Source: Pundamilia nyererei (lineage: Eukaryota). Taken from it: a DNA stretch of 28,553 nucleotides. Positions 3,049 through 27,776 of the stretch are shown here, one piece after another. A program made the translations under genes and the position numbers. The notes beneath the pieces were generated by a model. It was not told where the DNA came from and made no database searches. It worked only from the letters and a program-made list of their open reading frames with translations. The stretch spans positions 597,779-626,331 of the forward strand of contig NW_005187603.1 in the NCBI RefSeq assembly GCF_000239375.1. The letters are read 5' to 3'. Numbering within the stretch: position 1 is the stretch's first letter; each line of letters begins with the position of its first letter.

Positions 3049-3100
<52 letters not shown>
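3049..3100. repeat. (AC)26 dinucleotide microsatellite in an mvp intron, beginning 11 nt after the exon 2826-3037 donor
   Basis: An uninterrupted acacac… run, read directly. The six-frame ORF track shows HTHTHTHT / CVCVCVCV runs across it. Confidence 0.95.
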
Positions 3101-3102
<2 letters not shown>

Positions 3103-4468: not shown

Positions 4469-4558
4469 AACACCCACGCCGCTGACACCACACCCACGCC
4501 GCTGACACCACACCCACGCCGCTGACACCACACCCACGCCGCTCACACCACACCCACG
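4469..4558. repeat. 20-bp minisatellite, ~4.5 tandem copies of CACCCACGCCGCTGACACCA, in an mvp intron starting 4 nt after the exon 4276-4464 donor
   Basis: Direct reading: cacccacgccgctgacacca repeated four times. The last copy is variant (gctcacacca) and the array decays into cacccacgaa. Confidence 0.9.
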
Positions 4559-5309: not shown

Positions 5310-5435
5310 GTGAAGATGCTCCAGTCTCTGGGGCTCAAGTCCACCCTCATCACGGACGGCTCGTCTCCCATCAACCTCTTCACCACAGCCAACGGCCTGC
5401 TGGGGGCGCTGCCGGGTCAGGGACAGGCCCAGTGA
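5310..5435 (+). CDS. mvp: MVP terminal coding exon encoding [41 protein letters not shown], with TGA stop at 5433-5435
   Basis: Acceptor ttgtttcctccag|GTG at 5308-5309. Matches human [32 protein letters not shown]. The in-frame stop follows 41 codons. Confidence 0.88.
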
Positions 5436-6440: not shown

Positions 6441-8190
6441 ATCTAAATCTGATACGCCCCGTTCTGATTGAAGGATGTATGAAACGGGGTCAGTGAAGCC
6501 CAGGACGAGGGGGCAACTGTGCTCATTAAAAGGTCAGGTTGTGGGTCACTGATGGGTGGAGACAGACGGCATCATGTGACAGGAAGAAGGTGGCGAGAGC
6601 GGGCAAAGTTCAGCATAGAGAAGGTCCGAGATGATCATGTAGGTTACTCGCCAGATGTTGTTTGAGCACACTGCAAACAGTGGCTAACTCAGCCACACAA
6701 GTCCCGCCCACCTGTTCATCAGTCAATCAGAAGAAAGTCTCAAAGGTCAAAGAGCACACGAAGGCCTGGCGTAAAACAAGCAGGGATGATTTTGAGCCGC
6801 GACCCACGCAAAGCCAAAGAGCGAGGCGTGGCCCGTTTAATCCACCTGAGAAAATCCACCTGAAGGATCTACTTGGTCTTCTCCATTTGGCCACAGGTTC
6901 TCATCCACATCACATCTTATGTCATCCAGGGCAACACACCTAGGAAAGAATCTTCTGGCTGCCAGAATTGAAGGAGTTGAAAAATTGAAGGAGTAACACC
7001 TGTGCAGATGTTCATCTACAATGAGGATCAGCTGTGGCTGGTTAAACTGCATGTTTAGATTTAAAATATGTTTCAATAAAATATTGCTGTTGCATTTTGC
7101 TCTTTTCAAGTTTTGCATTGTGTTATTGTTTTGGCCATAAGTTTAACAGTTTTGGAAACAGTATGTAAGCACATGCAAAATGTCCTGTACGTACAAAGAT
7201 TGTTGGCAGTTGTTGTGTCTGAGTGAGAAGATGATTCATGAAATTTGAGAGATGTAGTCATTGAATGCATTTTGTGCCAAAACAATGATAACTGGTCCTC
7301 AGTTTAGCCCACATAGACTTCTGTTGTGCTCACTGTGTGAGGAGTTTTGCAAACGTGACCTGAGTATTGAGACATGTGTCCTAGCGTCTGTAAAAAACTG
7401 TAATAGTTATATATTATTGTTAAGGGGCACAGACAGGACTCCGCACGCACACACACATAAAAAAAAGTTGCCTCAACAAAAGGGCACTTTGGGCACCCAT
7501 CAGGAAAGGGGCGGGTGCTCAAGCCCCTCTAGCCCCCCCTCTGCACGTGCCTGACCCTAAGACCTGACCAACTTGGGTGGCCAAGCTTCTGCTGGTCTAG
7601 CTTTTAGGGTCACTGAGACACGCAAACCCCCCCGACTACATTATGGTGGTAATCCCTCAGGGGGAAACTGATTTCAGTCAGGTTTCAGAGCTCATCACAG
7701 CACAGAAACAGCTTTGAAAACCGCTAATTTAAATAAAAGTAAAACAAAGTAGCCCAAGTTATAAAGAAAAAGGCAAATTCACCAAGTCTTGAAATATAAA
7801 AGTGAAAAATAGAAATACAGAATAAAATAAAATATCTTTACAACCAACAACATAAAATCTATCTTAATTACATGACCTTATTTTGCAAAAATGAAATGAG
7901 AATAAAATCAGACATTCAATTTATGGACTCTCAAATTAACAGAGTCGCATTAAACGCGCCTCACTGCCTGCCGTAGCTGCACCTCAAAGGTTGGATTTAA
8001 CCAAAGTCCCGCAATTAAAGGAAATTAAAAAAAATGTTTCTAACAGATACAGTGAAGAACATTAAAATCGTTCACTGTCAGTTACAGCCGCTATGACCCT
8101 GACGCCCTGCCTACTGAGAAACCTACCCCCGGGTCATCTGCATACTAACAGTGATTGGCTGAGGGCGGGTGAGCATGCGCACAAACACAA

Positions 8191-9028
8191 CCGCGGTAAA
8201 GTGAGCCGTCATTTGTGAGCCGCGGTCAAGCCAGCCGCCTCTTATCCGCCTCATAAATTTCCTTGCGCTTTTACACCAGTCTTTACGGTAGCGCCTTTTC
8301 GCTTTATATGCCGATTGAAAGCTTAGACCCGAACACTCACACGCGCACACAAATTACAATGGAACAGCCCAATACAGTCAATACAATTAAGGAAATGTCA
8401 GAAATTCATTAAAAATCATCCTGAGTAGTTGAGGTCCAACTTTCAACAGATTCCTTCTCCGGGACACCTCCTGTACCCGTGTGCCAAGTTTCAGCCAGAT
8501 TCACTGTACAATTCCTCAAAAATTAAAGGACATTTATATGCAATTTTTATAAATTATAAATGCATTATAAAATTATAAATGCAATTTTTGAAAATTGACA
8601 TAATTCTATTGTATTGACTGTATTGAATTGTATATAAATGTCCTTTAATTTCTGAGGAATTTTACAGTGAATCTGGCTGAAACCTGGCACACAGGTACAG
8701 GAGGTGTCCCGGAGAAGGAATCTGTTGAAAGTTGGACCTCAACTACTCAGGATGATTTTTAATGAATTTCTGAAATAGACATAATTGTATTGACTGTATT
8801 GGGCTGTTCCATTGTAATTTGTGTGTGCGCGCGTGCGTGTGACTGTTCGCGCGCGCGTGTGACTGTTCGCGCGCGCGCACGTGTGCGCGAGTATAGGCTT
8901 TCAATCAGGATATAAAGCGAAAAGGCGCTACCGTAAAGACTGGTGTAAAAGCGCAAGGAAATTTATGCGGCGGATAGGAGGCGGCTGGCTTGACTGCGGC
9001 TCACAAATGACGGCTCACTTTACCGCGG
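8191..9028. repeat. Long inverted repeat (palindrome). The left arm is ~8191-8545 and the right arm ~8630-9028, at roughly 90% identity, separated by an AT-rich spacer of ~85 bp. This is a foldback-like structure.
   Basis: The reverse complement of 8395-8545 (gaaatgtcagaaattcattaaaaatcatcctgagtagttgaggtccaactttcaacagattccttctccgggacacctcctgtacccgtgtgccaagtttcagccagattcactgtacaattcctcaaaaattaaaggacattta) aligns to 8631-8780 with a handful of mismatches. The outer ends pair as ccgcggtaaagtgagccgtcatttgtgagccgcggtcaagccagccgcctc (8191-) against gaggcggctggcttgactgcggctcacaaatgacggctcactttaccgcgg (-9028). The mirror-image ORFs 8123..8350(-) and 8881..9117(+) share the peptide YKAKRRYRKDWCKSARKFMRRI, which confirms the symmetry. 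The right arm also carries a short tandem duplication, gtgtgactgttcgcgcgcgc x2, at 8838-8877. Confidence 0.85.
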
Positions 9029-11579
9029 TCAAACACAGCACGGAGCGAAAGAGCGAAAGAGATGTGAAATATGTCATCTCATGTGTGCCTTTTCTAGCGG
9101 TTTTGCAGCTACTGTAGTGAATCGTGTCCATGTTCAGTTTGGTGGTAAACTATTATTTTCGTTCTCAACTTGTAAAAGTTTGACTTGAGCGGGCAGGATG
9201 TTTGTTTGAGGGGGCAACTTGGCCCAGTGTAGCCCGGCACAGAATGAACAGGTGAGATTGGGATCACTGGGACCATCTTCATCGTTTATTTCACGTCATT
9301 TTGAGTTTTGCATCTGGGTTGGGTTTGGGATCACCAGCTTCACGTCACAGTGACGTTTAAACGTTGAGAGTGATCAGAGAGGAAACCGATGTTTCAGGCG
9401 CCATCAGCAGACGCTCCAGCTCCAGCTCTGGGCAGCGTACTGAACACTGGGGCTTGTGCTCCCGTGTGTCCACTAGAGGGAGCTCACAGAGTTCTCTGTT
9501 GGTGATCATGCTGTGGCGTGTCCCAGGTGAGGTTGTAGATTTTAAAGCTGCACATAGGCTGAAGCTATCACACTTAAGGAGCAATGAAACAATTACAGCT
9601 TTACTCCGAATATTACAACGTGTCTTTGTACTCCCCACAGATCCACTGGATCTAAATGAAAATGATCGATCCTGTGCAGAGCCACCATGGTTTTCTGCAT
9701 GTTTGAAATTTCGGACATGTGAACACAGGACCCCCCGCTGGAGCCCCCAGTGGACAATAGAGGAACTGCAGGTTTCAGTCCCGGTGTTTGCAAACGCTCA
9801 TGCTTTCTCTGCACAGCGACCCCGATCACACCGATCAGCCTGAGCGACAGAGAGGCACGCGTGTGAAAGAGCATGTTTTTAGTCTGTTATTAGGACGGAC
9901 TCGATCGCAGGCACGTCAGGGCGAGCAGCTCTGCAGAGACGAGGTGGCTCCTCTTTAACTCAATTCATCGACCCTGTAATTGAATCAGGAGAGGATAATG
10001 AAATCCCTCAAGGTTGACTCTAACTCTCTCCAACTGTCTCCTCTCCTTCAGGTTCCTCTTCATCTTCTGTTATCGACCCATCGCCCTCTGCTGGCTCCGC
10101 GTTTGCGTGGATATCCAGGATTCATCGATAAATCAGCTGATCGATGCCACAGAAACCCTGAGTAGTAAACGGCGAGCGTCACAGTCAGACTGAGAACAGA
10201 GACGTGTGTTTGTGCAGCGACTTTTCAGTAGAAATGAATCTTGATTCATTAAGAAACTGACAGAAAATTAACTGGTGACTCACTCAGTCCTGCACTAATC
10301 TAATCTTTCCTCCACGTAGGACTTTGTGTCAGATTTGCTCTTTTTCACATTTTTAATAGACTCGTGAAATGTTTATGTTCTGACTCTTCTTTTTTCTCTT
10401 ACTTGAAAAAACAATAAGATCCAGAAACACAATGGTTCATGACATCCAACAATCGCGTTATATTTTCAGAATGATGCCAGAAACACTCAGCGTTCACCTC
10501 AGCGTCTCTCTGCAGAGAGGTCGGCATCTTCCAGGCGACCAGTCGGGACCTGTGTGTTCTTCACATCTACCAGATCCAAGCTGAAGCGAACACAGCAACA
10601 TTCACTGCAGGTTCGACTTCAGCCTGTAACCAGCATCACGCAGAGAAACACATCTGAGAGCATCTTCCTGCATATATTATGCACTTTGTGCTCATTTAAT
10701 TCCTTGTTTGTTCTGTATCTGCTGCTTTCCTGTGTATCAGTGACAGCTGTCTGCTTGCATACGTAGTACTTGCTTTGGTCCTATTTCTATTATCTTCCTT
10801 TTATTCTCTATGTTACTTGTTAAGCATACCCTTGGTTTTAAGTGTGCTTTATAAATAAAGTTTATTATTATTATTATTATTCCTGATAACCAATCGGGAG
10901 GCCACATCGAGGACAATCCAAAGACCTGAATCTCCTGAGTGCATTTTAAAATCACCACCCTGTGAGCCAGCGAGCGCCACGCGGGCACAGATTCACCCTC
11001 CTCAGATCCTCAGCAGGGAGCCAGACGGCAGCGGCGTCACGCTAAGCTCCAGAATGCTCGCCAAGGTGACATGAAGGCAGGCGAACGCAGAGAAACCAAA
11101 TGCACCTCATAAGCACCCAAAGCACAGATTTACTGCACAGCTGCACAGAAAACGCTCCGCGGCAATAACAGCCCAAGAAGAAGAAGATCAGAAGCACCCA
11201 GCGCTGCCGACTGAAGCCTCCGTCACACCATGAACTCCACAAGTATATACACAGTACACAACTGCACACATCCAACCACAAACAAAGAAATAACAACAAT
11301 AACAATGAAGGCGAACCTTCAGGGTCACGATCTGCACAACAGCAACTAGACTTGTTTTCCATTGTGTCCTGGTACTGTAGGAACGCGACACTCAGAAGCA
11401 GCTTTTGGTCACAGCTGTCCTCTCGTGAGTTTCACCGTTGGTTCTGAAAAACGGACTGAAAGGAAAAAGGCAGCAGGGTGGAGACAAAGGCTGAAGCAGC
11501 TCCGACTTCGATTCGTCACCACGTCACATGATCAACAAGGAACGACCTCACGAGTTTAACCAAACTGCAACTTCTGCCT

Positions 11580-11900
11580 GAAATCACCTAGAAAGCCATT
11601 TAATGTGAAGGTGGCATCGCCCGACCACTGCAACGACACCAACCAATGAAATTAAAGCAGCATCTGCACATAAAGTCGTACTGCAACAGGCTGTCACTAC
11701 AGCGATGTGGCCGATCCTGCAACCACTGAGAGACCATACAGCAAAACACCTGCAGCTAAACCAACCAATGACAACAATTTCTGCAGCCAATCACTGCAAA
11801 CACTCAGAGCAACTAATCACCGACACTACGGCAACGCCAGCAATCTCTGCATCTACAGCAATCATTTCATTGACAACCTGCAACTAAACTGTTGCGGTGG
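11580..11900. repeat. Degenerate low-complexity tandem array built on the words CTGCAAC / CTGCAGC / CCAACCAATGA, with a period of roughly 20-40 bp
   Basis: Motif-bearing units recur: actgcaacgacaccaaccaatga, actgcaacaggctgtcac, cctgcaaccactgag, cctgcagctaaaccaaccaatgacaac, ctgcagccaatcactgcaaacac, cctgcaactaaac. The overlapping ORFs on both strands (11584..11790-, 11705..11887+, 11707..12006+) are composition artefacts. Confidence 0.6.
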
Positions 11901-12389
11901 ATTGGTTCTCCACCCACCTGCTGTTCAAACCTTGCCTTTGGAAGGGGCAGTCAATCATAAACAAGCGTGTCTTAAAGGGGGAGGGACTAAAACAGACACA
12001 GGTTGACCCTGGGGGCCGCAGTAAGGCCCAGTATCAGATAAAGGATTATTGTCAGTCATGCAAAGCTGGGAGTGAGCAGAACAGGAGTTTGCTGTCGCTC
12101 CGGCCTCACTGATACATCGCTCTGACCGAGGGAGTCTTCACACTCATTGCTGTGACAGCAGGCAGCACACACACTGAAACACAAATACACTTCTCTTTGT
12201 GTTTTCCTTTAACAACCATCTGTTTGTGTAGCTGTGGCACTCTGTGACCTTTATTTTGAAAGGTGCTCGTACAGCCTCAGACTGGGTGGATGAGAAACGG
12301 TTCACTTTAATGCTTCTGTGCTGCTTCTGTTTACGTCTCCATCGAAGATGAGTTATAGGAGCATATCTCCTTAAACATTTTGCTTCACC

Positions 12390-12780
12390 GTCTCCTCTGT
12401 GAGCGCCTCCTCCTGCCAGTGTTTGGGGTCATTTAGCTTCTCGCTTTCTCCTCATTTGTTATTGTTTTCACCTCAAATCCCCTTCCTCTCCCTCCCCTGC
12501 TGCATTATGACAGCTCCCCTCCCCCTCCCTCGCACCTCCTCCTTTGCTCATCTGTTGTTTCTCCTCCTGTCTTGTTACTTTTCCATCTCTTGTTCCTTCT
12601 GCAGACACCTGGAGATGCCTCTATCTCAGCCCCCACACATGTAACACGAACGCTCTTTAAAATTTTATTTCCCCTGCTTTTCTTCTCTGTTTCCCATCCT
12701 TCCCGCACCTCCCCACCTTCCTCCTCCTCCTGCTGTCCATGTCCTCATCTCTCCTCTCGCAGCCCCAGCAGAGTCCTTTA
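12390..12780. repeat. Polypyrimidine (CT-rich) low-complexity tract, ending in a (GA)8 run at ~12821-12838
   Basis: Direct reading: cctcctcctgcc…ccttcctctccctcccctgctgc…ccctccccctccctcgcacctcctcc…ccttcccgcacctccccaccttcctcctcctcctgctg. Confidence 0.7.
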
Positions 12781-14405
12781 ATAATTTATAAGAATCTAAA
12801 ATTCAAATGCAGCTCGCTGGGATAGAGAGAGAGAGAGCTTTTATTAACAGTGAAGAACCAGACCTCTCTCTCCTCTCCCACCACATCCCAACATCTCACT
12901 CCCTTGCTGACGGTTACCATGACAACCCTCTCGTCCTAGAAACAAGTTGCAAGAAAATGAAGTCTGCCACCTCATTATGTCTCCGTCCTTCCTCCCTCGC
13001 CACCTTAACGTCAAATAAAAAGACACGAAAACATAAAAGCATCTGTATGAACATGCAACACGCCGACTTTTTAAGATGACGTTGAACACAAACGACTGTT
13101 TTGCTTTTGCAAACTGAGCCTCTGTGTTTCCACTATCGATTACTGTGAACTTAAACACCCACACACCTTCTCCTGATTTATGGCCTTCTATTAAGCTGCT
13201 GATGGGCTGTGAATAACACACAAGTGACTCACGCAGTTCAACAGCCCGACCGCATTCAAAAAGGGAACTTTTTTTTGCCTTTGCCATCAGAACATCATGA
13301 CGGAAAATGACAACGAATCCACATTTTTGCACAGATTTGGCCTTTAAAGGCACGTGGTCCCAAACTTTTATCAGCTGTAAAACAGCCTGTTTCAGTTTAA
13401 GCGATGCTTTCAATAAACTGCATGCTCAGAAAACTGTTTTGTCTCACTCCCATTTCTTCTTGTTGCATATTTAAGATTGACTTGGAACCTTGTTACAATC
13501 CAACTGTGCAAAATGTGAATTTTTTGACAGTTTTTTTTTGATTGGGACTGTATGTGCACCTGTGGGATTTGCATAAAATATTTGCATACATCATATAGAT
13601 GTTGGTACTCACAGACAATGTTTATGCAAAGTCTCATCTAGACTGGTCCACCAGTCTAGAAGGAAACAGGGAACATGCAAGCATACACGGATAAGCTGCG
13701 ATATAAAATACTTGGACCAAGCTCATGCTTAAACATCAGCAGCAGTCATATTGATTCATTTCATTTCCTTTCACTTATTTATTTATAAAGCACATTTAAT
13801 AACAACAGGGAGCTGACCAAAGTGCTGTACAAAATAACAGTTAAACAATGACATTGACAACAACATGAGGTAAGAAAATTAAAAGAAAATTAGGATAAAA
13901 TAATTGGTAACTCTCACACAGTTCCGAAAGCCAGAGTAAAAAAATATGTTTTAAGATGTGATTTAAAAAGAGTGACAGTCGGGGCCTTTCTAATGTGGAG
14001 AGGTAGATCGTTCCACATTTTCGGTGCCACAACCGCAAATGCCCGATCTCCTCTATGAACCATCCTAGACTTATGTGAGGTAAGGAGCAGGTGATCGCTT
14101 GATCGAAGGGCTCTAGAGGGCGTATAAAGCTGCAATGGGTCAGACAAATAGTCCGGTGCCCGGCCAATTAGCACTTTATGAGTCAAAAGTAAGATTTTGA
14201 ATTTAATTCTAAAACGCACTGGAAGCCAATGAAGGGAAGCAAGCACCGGAGTAATATGTTGGTGTTTCTTCACACGAGTCAAAAGGCGAGCTGCAGCATT
14301 CTGTACCAGTTGGAGCCGGGCTGAGCTGGACTGACTGACACCCACATATAGTGAACTGCAGTGATCCAGTTGAGATAAAACGAACGCATGAATGGCTCGT
14401 TCCAA

Positions 14406-14530
14406 GTTTCTAAATGGTAAATGGCCTGTATTTATATAGCGCTTTTACTAGTCCCTAAGGACCCCAAAGCGCTTTACATATCCAGTCATCCACCCATTCA
14501 CACACTGGTGATGGCAGCTACATTGTTGTT
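14406..14530 (-). mobile_element. Short nested insertion of a LINE 3'-tail-like segment (tatttatatagcgctttt…caaagcgctttacata family) interrupting the ORF2 between the RT and the C-terminal domain
   Basis: The same motif family recurs at 13745-13860, 15905-16030 and 18163-18250. Here it sits between EKQQ… and …ERAIHAF of ORF2 and introduces two in-frame stops. It may alternatively be a divergent part of the ORF itself. Confidence 0.4.
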
Positions 14531-15904
14531 TCTCGAATGTAAGTTTGCTATCCAAGAAAACCCCACGTTTTTTACAAGTGTTTTAACAGCACGTTAGGTT
14601 GCATAAGTCCAAATCTGGGGCATTGAAATTACAGCTCGGTCCAAAAATAATTACCTCAGTTTTATCCTCGTTGAAGGTAAGAAAATTTGAGGCCATCCAG
14701 GTTTTAACTTCGTCAAGACATTTGACTAGCGATTCCATGGGTGTGGAGGTGTTTCTATTAAACCGAAGATAAGTCTGGTGTCATCGGCATATGAGTGAAA
14801 GCAGATGTTATGTTTCCTAAAGATTAGGCCTAGGGGCAACATATAGATTGAAAAAAGAATTGGGCCTAATACGGATCCCTGCGGGACACCACAAGTAAAA
14901 GGAGCTGGGGAAGAAATAAAATCATCAAGGCTCACGGAAAAAGTCCTCTCGGAGAGGTACGACCTAAACCGTTCCAAGAGGATACCTTTGATACCACATT
15001 GCTCCAAACGGGAGATCAGAATGCTGCGGTCAACAGGATCAAAGGCTGCAGTTAAGTCTAGGAGCAGGAGCACAGCTGGGTCATACCGGATTAAGTATTT
15101 TTAGGAGGGCATTTTCTGTGCTGTGGTGGGTTTTGAAGCCCAACTGGAACTTCTCGAAGGTATTATGACTATTTAGAAAGGTTTGTAGCTGCTCAAATAC
15201 AATCCTTTCTAAAATTTTTGACAGAAACAGTAGCTTGGAGACAGGTCTAAAATTAGCAAGAACAGAAGAATCAAGGTTCGGCTTTTTAAGCACTGGCTGC
15301 ACTACAGCGTGCTTGTATCCAGTTGGTACCACTCCAGAGCTGAGACTACTATTAAAAATAGTTAAAATGTCAGGACCGACTACCTTAATAATCTTTTTTA
15401 GAAAATGGTTGGGACTCCATCGGAAGGGCAGGATGCTATTGCAAAGATCTTCCACCTGGTTAAGACATACAGCCTCAATCTGGTCAAAAGCAGTTGAGGA
15501 GGTATATGTTAATGAGACATTATACAGAGATGGGGTAGATGTAGATGTAAATGGGGCGATCACATCAAGAGTAGTCTTGCATTTATTATTAAAATTCGAA
15601 TCCATCTGCTCAATACCATCACCAAGGGAAGAATTCGACAGTCTTTCAAAGGCAGTGGAAAACTGTTCTGTGGCCGTTGGTTTAAAAACACGATAACGTC
15701 GTGTTGAGGATGTAGGTTTAAGATGGCAATGAGATAAAAGTATATTAAACACTAATGGACAGTGGTCAGAAAAGATTGCATCACTTATTTCCAAATTAAC
15801 AACTGGTAATCCAAAAGACAACACGAGGTCCAACGTGTGGCCCTGTACATGTGTTGGATCCAATACATGCTGGATGAGGCTAAAAGACTCAATCAAATTT
15901 CTTT

Positions 15905-16030
15905 AGCCAGCTGGTTGTGGGGGCAGCATACATAGTTTAATAGTTTAATAGTTTAATTATTTATATAGCACATTTAATTACAACAGGAGCGTTGACCAAA
16001 GTGCTGTACAAGAATACAACATACATAATA
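15905..16030 (-). mobile_element. Second nested copy of the LINE 3'-tail motif (ttatttatatagcacatttaattacaacaggagcgttgaccaaagtgctgtacaag), inserted inside the endonuclease domain between GDFNIHV and IESFSLIQHVLDPTH
   Basis: Near-identical in sequence and orientation to the tail at 13745-13860. The ORF2 frame is closed on both sides of it. Confidence 0.5.
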
Positions 16031-18162
16031 AAACAACTTAGAGTATTAAACATGGATATTAAAATCACCTACTAGTAAAATTTGATCATAACTCGGGATG
16101 ATTCCTGCTAAAAAAGTTGAAAAATCTCGAATAAAATCTTTGTTATATTTTGGAGGTCTGTATATTACTCCAATTCAAAAAGTAGGATTTCGAAGCTTGA
16201 GTAGAAGTCTGTTGAAAGTTGTTTATATGTTAGTCTCTTCCTGAGGACAGCCGGAACTCCGCCCCCGCGTTTGCCCATACTCGGCAGATTTAAATAACAG
16301 TCAGAAGGTAGAAGTTCAGTAAAACAACTGAGCTCACCTCAGCCAAGTTTCCGTTAGGAGCATGAGATCCAAATCGCGGTAAGTAAAAAAGTCCTTTAAA
16401 ATAAAGGTTTTATTAGCTAACGAGCGGACATTAGCAAGGCTGATCCGTAGTGAAGTCGAAGGCTTAGTAGTGGAAATAGGAGCCCGTTGAAGCGTCCGCA
16501 GGTTCTGGAAGCTTACTCCTCTCCGACAATGTCGCGGCGGTCGCAGGCATTCATGTACAGTAAAACACCAATGTGGAGTGTTTCTGTGCCAAAGAAGTAC
16601 TTTAACTTTTTTCAGAGTTTCCAAAAATACATTCATGTTTGTATTAAGATGCTGTAACAGTGTGGCTGCTTACACTGAATAGTGATGGGATTTCCAGCTC
16701 TTTTTAGAGAACCGGCTCTTTCGGTTCGGCTCACTAAAAAAAGCCGAGTCTTTTCGTTCGCGACCGACACATCACTAACACTGAAGAAAAAGGTCTAAAA
16801 CAAGCAGAAGAATAAACACGTGGAACTCCCGACTCCCATGAAACAACCTGAAGCCCAAACTGAGCCATGCAACAGATGGAAAAACACCCCCAAACCTGAA
16901 AGAATGACCGGATAAAACATGAGATCAAGGTCCGGGAGCAACTAAAGCAAGAGAGGATAAACTATGAAAAAACTGGTGCTTTCATAACAACACGGGGCAG
17001 TGAGGATGGGAGGATCTGGAGGCTGTGTCCCACTGGAAGTCTTCCATTTGTTTTATTTAGTCCAAAAAAGAAAAGCCTAAGTTATACTTACAAACTCTCC
17101 CCTCGGGGTGAGACCATCTTATCGGAGCGAGGCTCCCCGAGAGAGTCAAGTGAGTCTTCGCACATCCGCCGGTGTGGGCAAAACGACAATCTGACTCCAG
17201 AGATTTAGCACATCTTTATTGTTATTGTTTTTCATGTGCTCGTGGGATTTGCTCATTAATAGAAAACAACTAAATTCCTAGGTCATTTTCTTAGCATCAG
17301 GTGACACCGGTGTTTCTAACAGTTCTTCCTCCTGATTGTATCTCTACAGTTTAAACATGTAATAAGCTTTGCCCTGCACAGAGTGGATAGTGAAACAAAT
17401 GGAATCATCATAAATACATTATTTCATATTTATTACTTCCCCCTCCTCATTGCTTTATTATTGTAGCTCTAGTAATAAATAATAATGTAATGATTCTGGA
17501 TCAGCACCATGATGCCCATAGTATATACAGTATTCTGAAGAAGGTCTAAAATGTCACTGTGTGTGCGTGCATGTGTGTGTTTTATTTAGCTGGATTTTTT
17601 TTTATTATTACTCAGGATATAACATTGTCCAGACATGGCTGGTAAGGACATGAGGAGGAAACAGCAGGAGCTGTGTGAGCTACTAAAGGCAGGGCTATAA
17701 CATTTTTCTGTCATCATTTTATTATAGATTAAGTGCAAGAGTTGTTAGGTGTGGATAATTAGATTATAGTTTATTGCAATAGCAAGTTGTGCCTTGTTCT
17801 CAGATAGACAGCAAGTGGAGAGTGATATATGAAATGATGGGATGGAAGGAAGAAGAGAAGCAAAGAGTGATTCACAGGCAGAGCCTAAATTTTTTCTCAC
17901 AGTGTTTTGTGTCCTTATGGTTCCAAGCGCTGTCACCAATCTTTGCATTTTGTTATTATCTCATGACACTTGTTTAATCAGCTACCATCTCTCCTGTGGA
18001 CTTTTTAATGTCTACAGTCTCAGATCAACACAGCCCTGCCCTTCCCATATTAGATTCTTGATGAATGTGTGTTGTTGTTATTCAGCCTGGTTCAATGTGC
18101 CCCTTTTTAACTTTGAGCACCCACCCCTTTAAACCTCTCTGCACGGCCCTGCTCCATCTCAC

Positions 18163-26825: not shown

Positions 26826-27002
26826 TTAGGTCGCTTTTGTGGAGAAAATGACTGAATCGTGAGACTTACATCCCCAGTTCAGGACGATGGCCGCTGCGAT
26901 GATGGCAATCCCTCCTAAAATGGAGACAACAGACAGCACCATGGCGTTACGGCCCAAACGGCGAGCACCGTCAACGTTGCCTTGCTGCAGACTGTTTCGG
27001 GA
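26826..27002 (-). CDS. prrt2: PRRT2-like terminal coding exon encoding [58 protein letters not shown]
   Basis: The - strand acceptor is cccttcag|TCC, with AG at + 27004-27003. Matches human PRRT2 [47 protein letters not shown]. The stop codon is at + 26828-26826. The last ~14 residues are unlike human, and a strong internal donor GAT|GTAAGT (+ 26870-26865) could mean the true C-terminus lies in a further exon. Confidence 0.7.
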
Positions 27003-27486
27003 CTGAAGGGAAGCAGAGAGCAAAGAAAACAAGCAATAAACGGTCACTCAACATCGTAAAATAATGATATGATTGGGTTGGGACAACAAGACAACATTAT
27101 AGTTACAGATAAAAAGAAGAAAAAAAATCAGCAGATTAGACAGCAGACGACTTGATACTGACAATTTAAATGTTATATAAATGTGTTTCTGCCTGCAGCT
27201 CCATATTTCTATTGTGGGACATCACCAAAGAACTTTCCAGGCTCTCAGCTAAAATATATTCCTCATTTATCATTCGCTGGTTCTTTCTACAGCCCGAGTT
27301 CTTCTTGGAAAAACCAATTTCAGCTCTTTTGTCTTGGTTACTAACATGTAAAATAGATTCTTTTGTTTTTGGAGTTGTCAGCTCTGTTGTCCTTAAAGAT
27401 TAAAAAGTTTTTGGTTGTGACTTATAAATTTGTCTGAGCTGCTGTTAACTGAGAGGTTTAAATGACACTGTTGTCAGAAGTCGTAC

Positions 27487-27776
27487 CATCACAGAGAAGG
27501 TGAGGGCCACGATGTTGATGGGCCACATTGGGCAGAAGCAGGATAAGATGGCGAGGATCAGGTAGTCCCTCGGCTTGGACCCATCCACAGCGGCCTCTGT
27601 GATGGCGCTGGGCTGGCGGGTGAGCGAGGGCCTGGGGGAGCCCATCGCTAGCGAGCCAGACCGGCTGCCCAAGCGGGGCCGGCCATTAGCATGGCCAGCT
27701 GGCTTTGCATGCAGCTTGGGCGACACAGAGGGCGCTATGGGTGACGAGTCAGCCATGACAGGCGCGATGCCATTAC
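27487..27776 (-). CDS. prrt2: Proline-rich transmembrane protein 2-like (CD225/dispanin family), penultimate coding exon encoding …[96 protein letters not shown]
   Basis: Matches human PRRT2 …[20 protein letters not shown]…[30 protein letters not shown]. On the - strand the donor is ATG|GTACGA, with GT at + 27486-27485. A candidate acceptor ttttgttttctag|GT lies at + 27777-27778, upstream of the in-frame Met at 27756. The frame stays open upstream of that Met, so the true 5' end of this exon, or the start codon, is not settled. Confidence 0.7.

Follow-up and report, generated by a model that had tools for sequence, protein, structure and literature searches.

A probable non-autonomous, foldback-like DNA transposon bounded by an 8-bp direct repeat downstream of mvp in Pundamilia nyererei

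Genomic context of the locus

The window analyzed here is a stretch of 28,553 nucleotides of contig NW_005187603.1 of Pundamilia nyererei. Exons of mvp, encoding the Vault and MVP-shoulder domains, are located on the plus strand and continue as far as the stop codon (5433-5435); their best protein matches are the major vault proteins of fishes (84-89% identity), and at the DNA level they are 80-93% identical to Labeo rohita. Two exons of a CD225-domain (prrt2-like) gene are present on the minus strand (26829-27047 and 27448-27756), hence opposite in strand to mvp, whose stop codon is about 21 kb away. In Labeo rohita the homologous exons (contig L001, 29266-29815) lie on the same strand as mvp and about 8 kb downstream of it; given the strand and distance of these exons, the two fishes differ in both the length and the orientation of the segment that separates mvp from the CD225/prrt2-like gene. 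The Labeo contig additionally displays two interleaved series of matches to the same mvp exons of the window (L001 9889-21075), one at 82-93% and the other at about 74-82% identity, which suggests that mvp is either tandemly duplicated or haplotype-merged in that assembly. Both this contig and an mvp mRNA from the Logan collection (L005) share only exons with the window (80-93%), and neither offers alignable intergenic DNA in which an empty site could be read.

Several other repetitive features are distributed across the window. Between mvp exons there is an (AC)26 microsatellite (3049-3101), and a 20-bp tandem repeat of ACACCCACGCCGCTGACACC, with 4.4 copies and 98% matches, begins right where an mvp exon ends (4470-4558). 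At 951-1043, an imperfect hairpin of (CCT)n/(AGG)n (arms 957-987 and 1007-1037), which overlaps a stretch aligning to Labeo mvp, recovered several sub-threshold miRNA-family matches on both strands and is probably a low-complexity artefact. Degenerate LINE fragments occupy 13917-16636 on the minus strand, with RVT_1 reverse-transcriptase matches in the open reading frames at 14729-15073 and 15084-15896 and further open frames on either side.

Architecture of the inverted repeat

The feature of principal concern is an inverted repeat of 840 bp (8190-9029), recovered by both repeat search and alignments, which begins 2.75 kb downstream of the mvp stop codon and is the sole strong inverted repeat of the window (Table 1). 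The repeat search reported it as two arm pairs, 8333-8545/8626-8838 (213 nt, 93%) and 8190-8353/8866-9029 (164 nt, 90%), which are parts of a single inverted repeat that indels have interrupted. When the left arm was aligned locally with the reverse complement of the right, 372 positions matched, 27 were mismatched and 58 columns held gaps (93% identity with gaps excluded), while global alignment of 8190-8545 with 8626-9029 yielded 337 identities in 356 positions (94.7%); a blastn comparison of the palindrome region with the window, in which gaps are counted, gave 81% over 896 columns. The original prediction of a near-perfect palindrome of about 840 bp with arms of about 90% identity is hence borne out, with arms 93-95% alike over aligned columns, well above the figure of about 70% that it had named as a lower limit. 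The 19 substitutions of the global alignment comprise 8 transitions and 11 transversions and include a block of five mismatches at 8390-8397, next to which, from 8398, starts the longest run of identity between the arms (~80 nt). Differences affect 5 of 19 CpGs (about 13% of CpG positions changed) as against 4.4% of non-CpG sites, a contrast too weak for any statement on methylation state.

Table 1. Features of the inverted repeat and of its immediate flanks (window coordinates)
Feature	Position	Strand	Remarks
Promoter-like motifs of the target site, outside the element	8153-8180	+	Read from sequence; end 9 bp before the insertion point
Left copy of the target-site duplication, CAAACACA	8182-8189		Abuts the left terminus
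Left arm, long terminal inverted repeat	8190-8545	+	356 nt; repeat search, alignments
Spacer	8546-8625		80 nt, 84% A+T, short tandem repeats
Right arm, inverted copy of the left	8626-9029	-	404 nt; terminates ...CTCACTTTACCGCGGT
20-bp GC/GT-rich tandem expansion	8824-8887		Right arm only; TRF and repeat search
Right copy of the target-site duplication, CAAACACA	9030-9037		Abuts the right terminus

The palindrome is far beyond chance, inasmuch as its predicted folds lie far below those of shuffled controls: the fold energy is -427 kcal/mol for single-stranded DNA (shuffles -101 +/- 5; z = -60) and -655 kcal/mol for RNA (shuffles -222 +/- 8; z = -57). The view that it was too long and too well conserved to have arisen by chance is consequently upheld.

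The outer boundaries of the repeat are sharp: pairing ends exactly at 8190 and 9029, and the three bases outside each terminus (8187-8189 versus 9030-9032) are unpaired. The left arm opens with the self-complementary octamer ACCGCGGT, which is followed by two subterminal occurrences of GTGAGCCG (8201-8208 and 8215-8222). A window search found the terminal 20-mer only at the two ends of the element, and, by this search and by blastn, the window (28.5 kb) contains no further copy of either arm.

At the center of the palindrome, the AT-rich spacer of about 85 bp with two copies of ttataaatgca that had been described earlier is confirmed in slightly shorter form, with AAATTATAAATGCA present twice according to the repeat search and TRF. 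In the right part of the spacer (8592-8625) a segment of the arm is present for a third time, though incompletely, and ATTGTATTGACTGTATTG within it is 100% identical to 8784-8801. The 20-bp tandem duplication noticed in the right arm likewise proved real: TRF detects a period of 20 with 2.7 copies and 94% matches at 8824-8877, and a weaker third unit reaches 8887. The gap blocks of the arm alignment show that this expansion accounts for the additional 48 nt of the right arm.

The element has no coding capacity. Its longest open reading frames are mirror-image frames of 75-78 amino acids without any Pfam match, and protein searches recovered no transposase gene or real protein homologue in it, apart from the translated sequence P0122 discussed below.

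A direct repeat at the outer boundaries and the nature of the insertion site

Directly outside both termini of the 840-bp unit lies the octamer CAAACACA, in direct orientation and identical at 8 of 8 positions. Read on a single strand, the left junction is ...GCGCA-CAAACACA/ACCGCGGT... and the right junction is ...ACCGCGGT/CAAACACA-GCACGG (the slash marking the boundary of the element). On both strands together (57 kb) this octamer is present only 6 times, and from the octamer frequency in the window a chance match at a fixed position has a probability of ~1e-4. Removal of the element together with one copy of the octamer rebuilds a continuous site, ...GATTGGCTGAGGGCGGGTGAGCATGCGCA-CAAACACA-GCACGGAGCGAAAG..., and the empty site before insertion would have read GCATGCGCA-CAAACACA-GCACGGAG (in its other notation ...GGGCGGGTGAGCATGCGCA-CAAACACA-GCACGGAGCGAAAG...). 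Transposases that integrate DNA at a staggered cut leave a characteristic mark of this type, namely direct repeats of a fixed length outside sharp inverted termini, and the octamer pair is a target-site duplication, the argument being made from a single 8-bp match. The same bases had previously been taken for a micro-inversion of the outermost sequence (tgtgtttgtg against caaacacag); they are in fact this direct repeat, which looks inverted only because the arms were compared as complements.

The unique left flank contains an inverted CCAAT box (GATTGG, 8153-8158), a GC box (GGGCGGG, 8163-8169) and an NRF1-like motif (GCATGCGC, 8173-8180). The CCAAT and GC-box motifs noted earlier to the left of the palindrome are therefore genuine, but belong to the target site and not to the element. 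The ratio of observed to expected CpG is 0.85-1.0 across 7900-8300 and 9000-9300, compared with 0.1-0.4 in 6800-7600 and about 0.4-0.5 in 9300-9600. Judging from this composition and these motifs, the CpG-rich, island-like stretch comprising 7900-8189 and 9030-9300 might act as a promoter; if so, the element has moved the upstream motifs 848 bp from the putative transcript start. The region 9040-9250 could be a first exon ending in ATGAACAG/GTGAGA. No gene could be tied to the CpG-rich stretch: Pfam searches of all six frames of 9000-13400 recovered no domain, and tblastn with a human PAGR1 sequence, a weak test, gave no match. Several cut-and-paste families typically insert into 5' regions. 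An element placed within a promoter-like stretch could affect the neighboring transcript or itself be transcribed as a hairpin RNA.

A second copy of the family

A 53-aa frame of the arm terminus (window:8192-8350:-) was compared with 1.84 billion representative proteins in a full HMMER scan, which recovered P0122 with an E-value of 1.5e-8 and 65% identity. Two further matches of the same scan, P0121 and P0123, are repeat-rich proteins with many short matching stretches and were set aside as spurious. P0122 corresponds to an open reading frame on two public Logan contigs of fish type, L003 and L004, which derive from different sequencing runs (SRR9657492 and SRR17908689) and represent the same locus; it is a frame read across another copy of the element. 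This second copy thus amounts to one locus, seen in two runs, with one end visible.

At the DNA level, positions 85-243 of L003 are 82% identical to window 8871-9029 (E = 5e-40), 3-243 are 74% identical to 8190-8424, and 3-30 are 96% identical to 8747-8774. In a three-way alignment the similarity reaches the terminus of the element and ends there, at the ...ACCGCGGT/ that corresponds to window 9029: the terminus reads ...GCTCACTTGACCGCGGT/GACAACAG in L003 and ...GCTCACTTTACCGCGGT/CAAACACA in the window, and the other 880 bp of L003 are unrelated to the window. Since the homology at this other locus stops at the terminus, the arm has to be regarded as a mobile unit with a defined end. The subterminal region bearing the two GTGAGCCG motifs of the window is largely conserved in L003; lying next to the terminus, these motifs resemble transposase-binding subterminal repeats and might serve as such. 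Both Logan contigs begin inside the arm (1-30 in each), in a segment matching the start (8398) of the longest identity between the arms of the window, which is the point at which assembly would break off were that copy likewise palindromic, or multi-copy.

In shared columns the arms of the window are 92% identical to each other and each is 77-78% identical to L003. With L003 as an outgroup, the differences between the arms can be polarized: it agrees with the left arm in 8 cases and with the right arm in 9. This even split of derived changes indicates that both arms drifted independently from a once-identical state. Of the earlier argument for independent evolution of the arms, the conclusion stands, along with the 20-bp expansion confined to the right arm, while the part drawn from the supposed micro-inversion falls with its reassignment to the target-site duplication.

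Other searches for relatives were negative within their respective scopes. Word-indexed protein searches gave no matches either for the 50-aa terminal open reading frame of the arm or for a 607-aa composite of all six frames of one arm; given that the full HMMER scan found P0122, the word index evidently misses short Logan frames. Exact-pattern DNA scans of metagenome contigs, prokaryote genomes and viral contigs, collections which hold almost no fish DNA, came back empty, and exact look-ups of two junction-spanning open reading frames returned no record. Six 16-19-mers of the element and the two SRA run numbers were not found in the full text of the literature.

Alternative explanations of the palindrome

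Taken together, these observations make it very probable that 8190-9029 represents a cut-and-paste (class II) transposon of the non-autonomous type, foldback-like in organization and ending in long terminal inverted repeats, which was inserted as one unit. Among the explanations that had been put forward for the palindrome, a foldback or MITE-type transposon is the one favored by the perfect 8-bp target-site duplication and by the diverged second copy sharing the terminal base.

A hairpin precursor had also been considered, namely that the repeat is a functional hairpin-RNA gene, akin to an endo-siRNA or miRNA precursor, expressed from the adjacent promoter-like region. This would be compatible with a transposon origin, and the very stable RNA fold, the CCAAT, GC-box and NRF1-like motifs 10-35 bp upstream, and small Rfam E-values to long-hairpin miRNA families all speak in its favor. 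The strongest of these matches are to MIR821 (145 bits) and MIR7533 (114 bits), with further ones to the plant miRNA precursor families MIR7723, MIR8007, MIR841 and MIR2606. However, the scores of the first two fall below the gathering thresholds of 249 and 230 bits respectively, and all Rfam scores for the element amount to about half of the threshold. Moreover, matches are obtained with either strand and with many plant families unrelated to one another, their alignments are held together by compensated base pairs rather than by shared sequence, and nothing points to a conservation of pairing beyond that which any inverted repeat entails. As any long hairpin would score in this way, the matches do not amount to membership, and assignment to MIR821, MIR7533 or the other families was rejected on account of the sub-threshold, pair-driven matches on both strands. 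The element does resemble the MITE-derived long-hairpin miRNA precursors of plants in being a long, near-perfect hairpin of the transposon type, to which their covariance models align over the full length; it differs from them in its vertebrate source, in sharing no sequence with the models and in scoring at about half of gathering. A functional hairpin-RNA gene is accordingly considered very unlikely.

A somewhat broader, speculative proposal is that the element, placed between the CCAAT/GC-box/NRF1-like motifs and a downstream transcript start, is transcribed into a dsRNA stem of ~380 bp that serves as an endogenous source of small RNAs, or alternatively has displaced or silenced the promoter, and, as a separate matter, that a so far uncatalogued lineage of fish DNA transposons may be represented by this ACCGCGGT-ended, 8-bp-duplicating family with its long terminal inverted repeats. 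This we regard as improbable.

Another possibility raised earlier was a recent inverted duplication. Under this explanation fold-back priming or template switching copied ~360 bp of unique sequence in the opposite orientation in place, which would fit the 93-95% similarity of the arms and also the partial extra arm segment in the spacer, a scar of the type that template switching can leave. Such an event, however, predicts neither an 8-bp direct repeat outside both arms nor sharp boundaries on both sides. Furthermore, the arm is found at an unrelated locus in another sample, with homology ending at the same base, so that it is a mobile unit and not local unique DNA. The likelihood of an origin by duplication in place is hence slight.

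The palindrome might otherwise consist of two independent copies of a dispersed repeat that came to lie head-to-head by chance or by nested insertion. That the arm belongs to a dispersed family, and that L003 displays a single end, compatible with a one-armed family unit, would agree with this. Yet two such copies would each carry their own duplication, whereas it is the outer flanks that match each other at 8 of 8 positions, and the inner junction (8546 onwards, TTTATAAA...) is without the CAAACACA repeat. The arms are also 92-95% identical to each other as against 77% to the other copy of the family. A head-to-head arrangement of separate insertions is thus highly improbable. Finally, although palindromic artefacts of such size are known from long-read data, an assembly artefact such as a chimeric read with a missed adapter can practically be dismissed, as the arms differ by 19 substitutions and structured indels, an asymmetric 80-nt spacer occupies the center, unique same-strand DNA resumes after the 8-bp duplication, unlike in a fold-back read artefact, and a related copy exists in independent data.

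Proposed history of the element

The transposon interpretation allows a sequence of events to be proposed. The long terminal inverted repeats, or a composite of two inverted ends, would have formed at or before the donor site, such that the palindrome was brought in with the element and not made at this locus. Acting in trans, the transposase of a relative would have recognized the termini ACCGCGGT together with the GTGAGCCG repeats next to them, cut the unit out of the donor site and inserted it here at a staggered cut of 8 bp, the repair of which would have duplicated CAAACACA on both sides. Following insertion the element would have decayed passively, leaving arms that differ at ~5% of sites with the changes evenly spread over both, and replication slippage could have expanded the 20-bp GC-rich unit in the right arm.

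Fish genomes contain very many non-autonomous DNA transposons. The element is most likely an ordinary non-coding member of this kind and is probably already in a repeat library, which would probably mask it; as a transposon insertion it matters little. An inverted repeat of ~360 bp with 95% identity and an 80-bp spacer is nevertheless the type of structure that is able to stall replication and provoke rearrangement.

Comparison with known elements

In terms of architecture, the element is comparable to the foldback elements FB of Drosophila, Galileo/Kepler/Newton and Tetris, all of which combine two long inverted arms with a short center. Like it, FB, Galileo and Tetris have no coding capacity, a short target-site duplication and a strong potential to form hairpins or cruciforms. 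FB belongs to the Mutator/MULE-F group and typically generates a 9-bp duplication, while Galileo/Kepler/Newton belong to the P superfamily, with a duplication of 7 bp in Galileo; that of the present element is 8 bp. In FB, Galileo and Tetris the arms consist internally of tandem sub-repeats, whereas here one 20-bp unit is expanded (2.7 copies), and this in one arm only.

A duplication of 8 bp is compatible with the hAT, P, Merlin, Zisupton and Novosib superfamilies and with some Mutator-like elements. The hAT elements possess short terminal inverted repeats of ~10-25 bp starting with YARNG (CAG/TAG) and display a weak target preference for nTnnnnAn. With the MITEs and other non-autonomous hAT elements of fishes the present element shares an 8-bp duplication, a non-coding length below 1 kb and short subterminal repeats. 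It departs from hAT in that its termini read ACCGCGGTAAAG, beginning with ACCGC instead of YARNG, and in that its terminal inverted repeats measure ~360 bp rather than ~10-25 bp; furthermore, neither of the target octamers, CAAACACA in the window and GACAACAG beside L003, fits nTnnnnAn. The THAP9-related Pdre elements of zebrafish likewise occur in a teleost, generate an 8-bp duplication and carry both terminal and subterminal inverted repeats (PMC10983969). In the case of the P-like Pdre2 these are a 13-bp terminal inverted repeat, CATACCTGTCAAC, and a 12-bp subterminal repeat, TGTTTAAACCAA (PMC10983969), neither of which matches the ACCGCGGT... termini of the element. Thus, as read from their sequence, the termini fit neither of the two 8-bp-duplicating groups compared, hAT and zebrafish Pdre2, and for this reason the transposase of the family is worth looking up.
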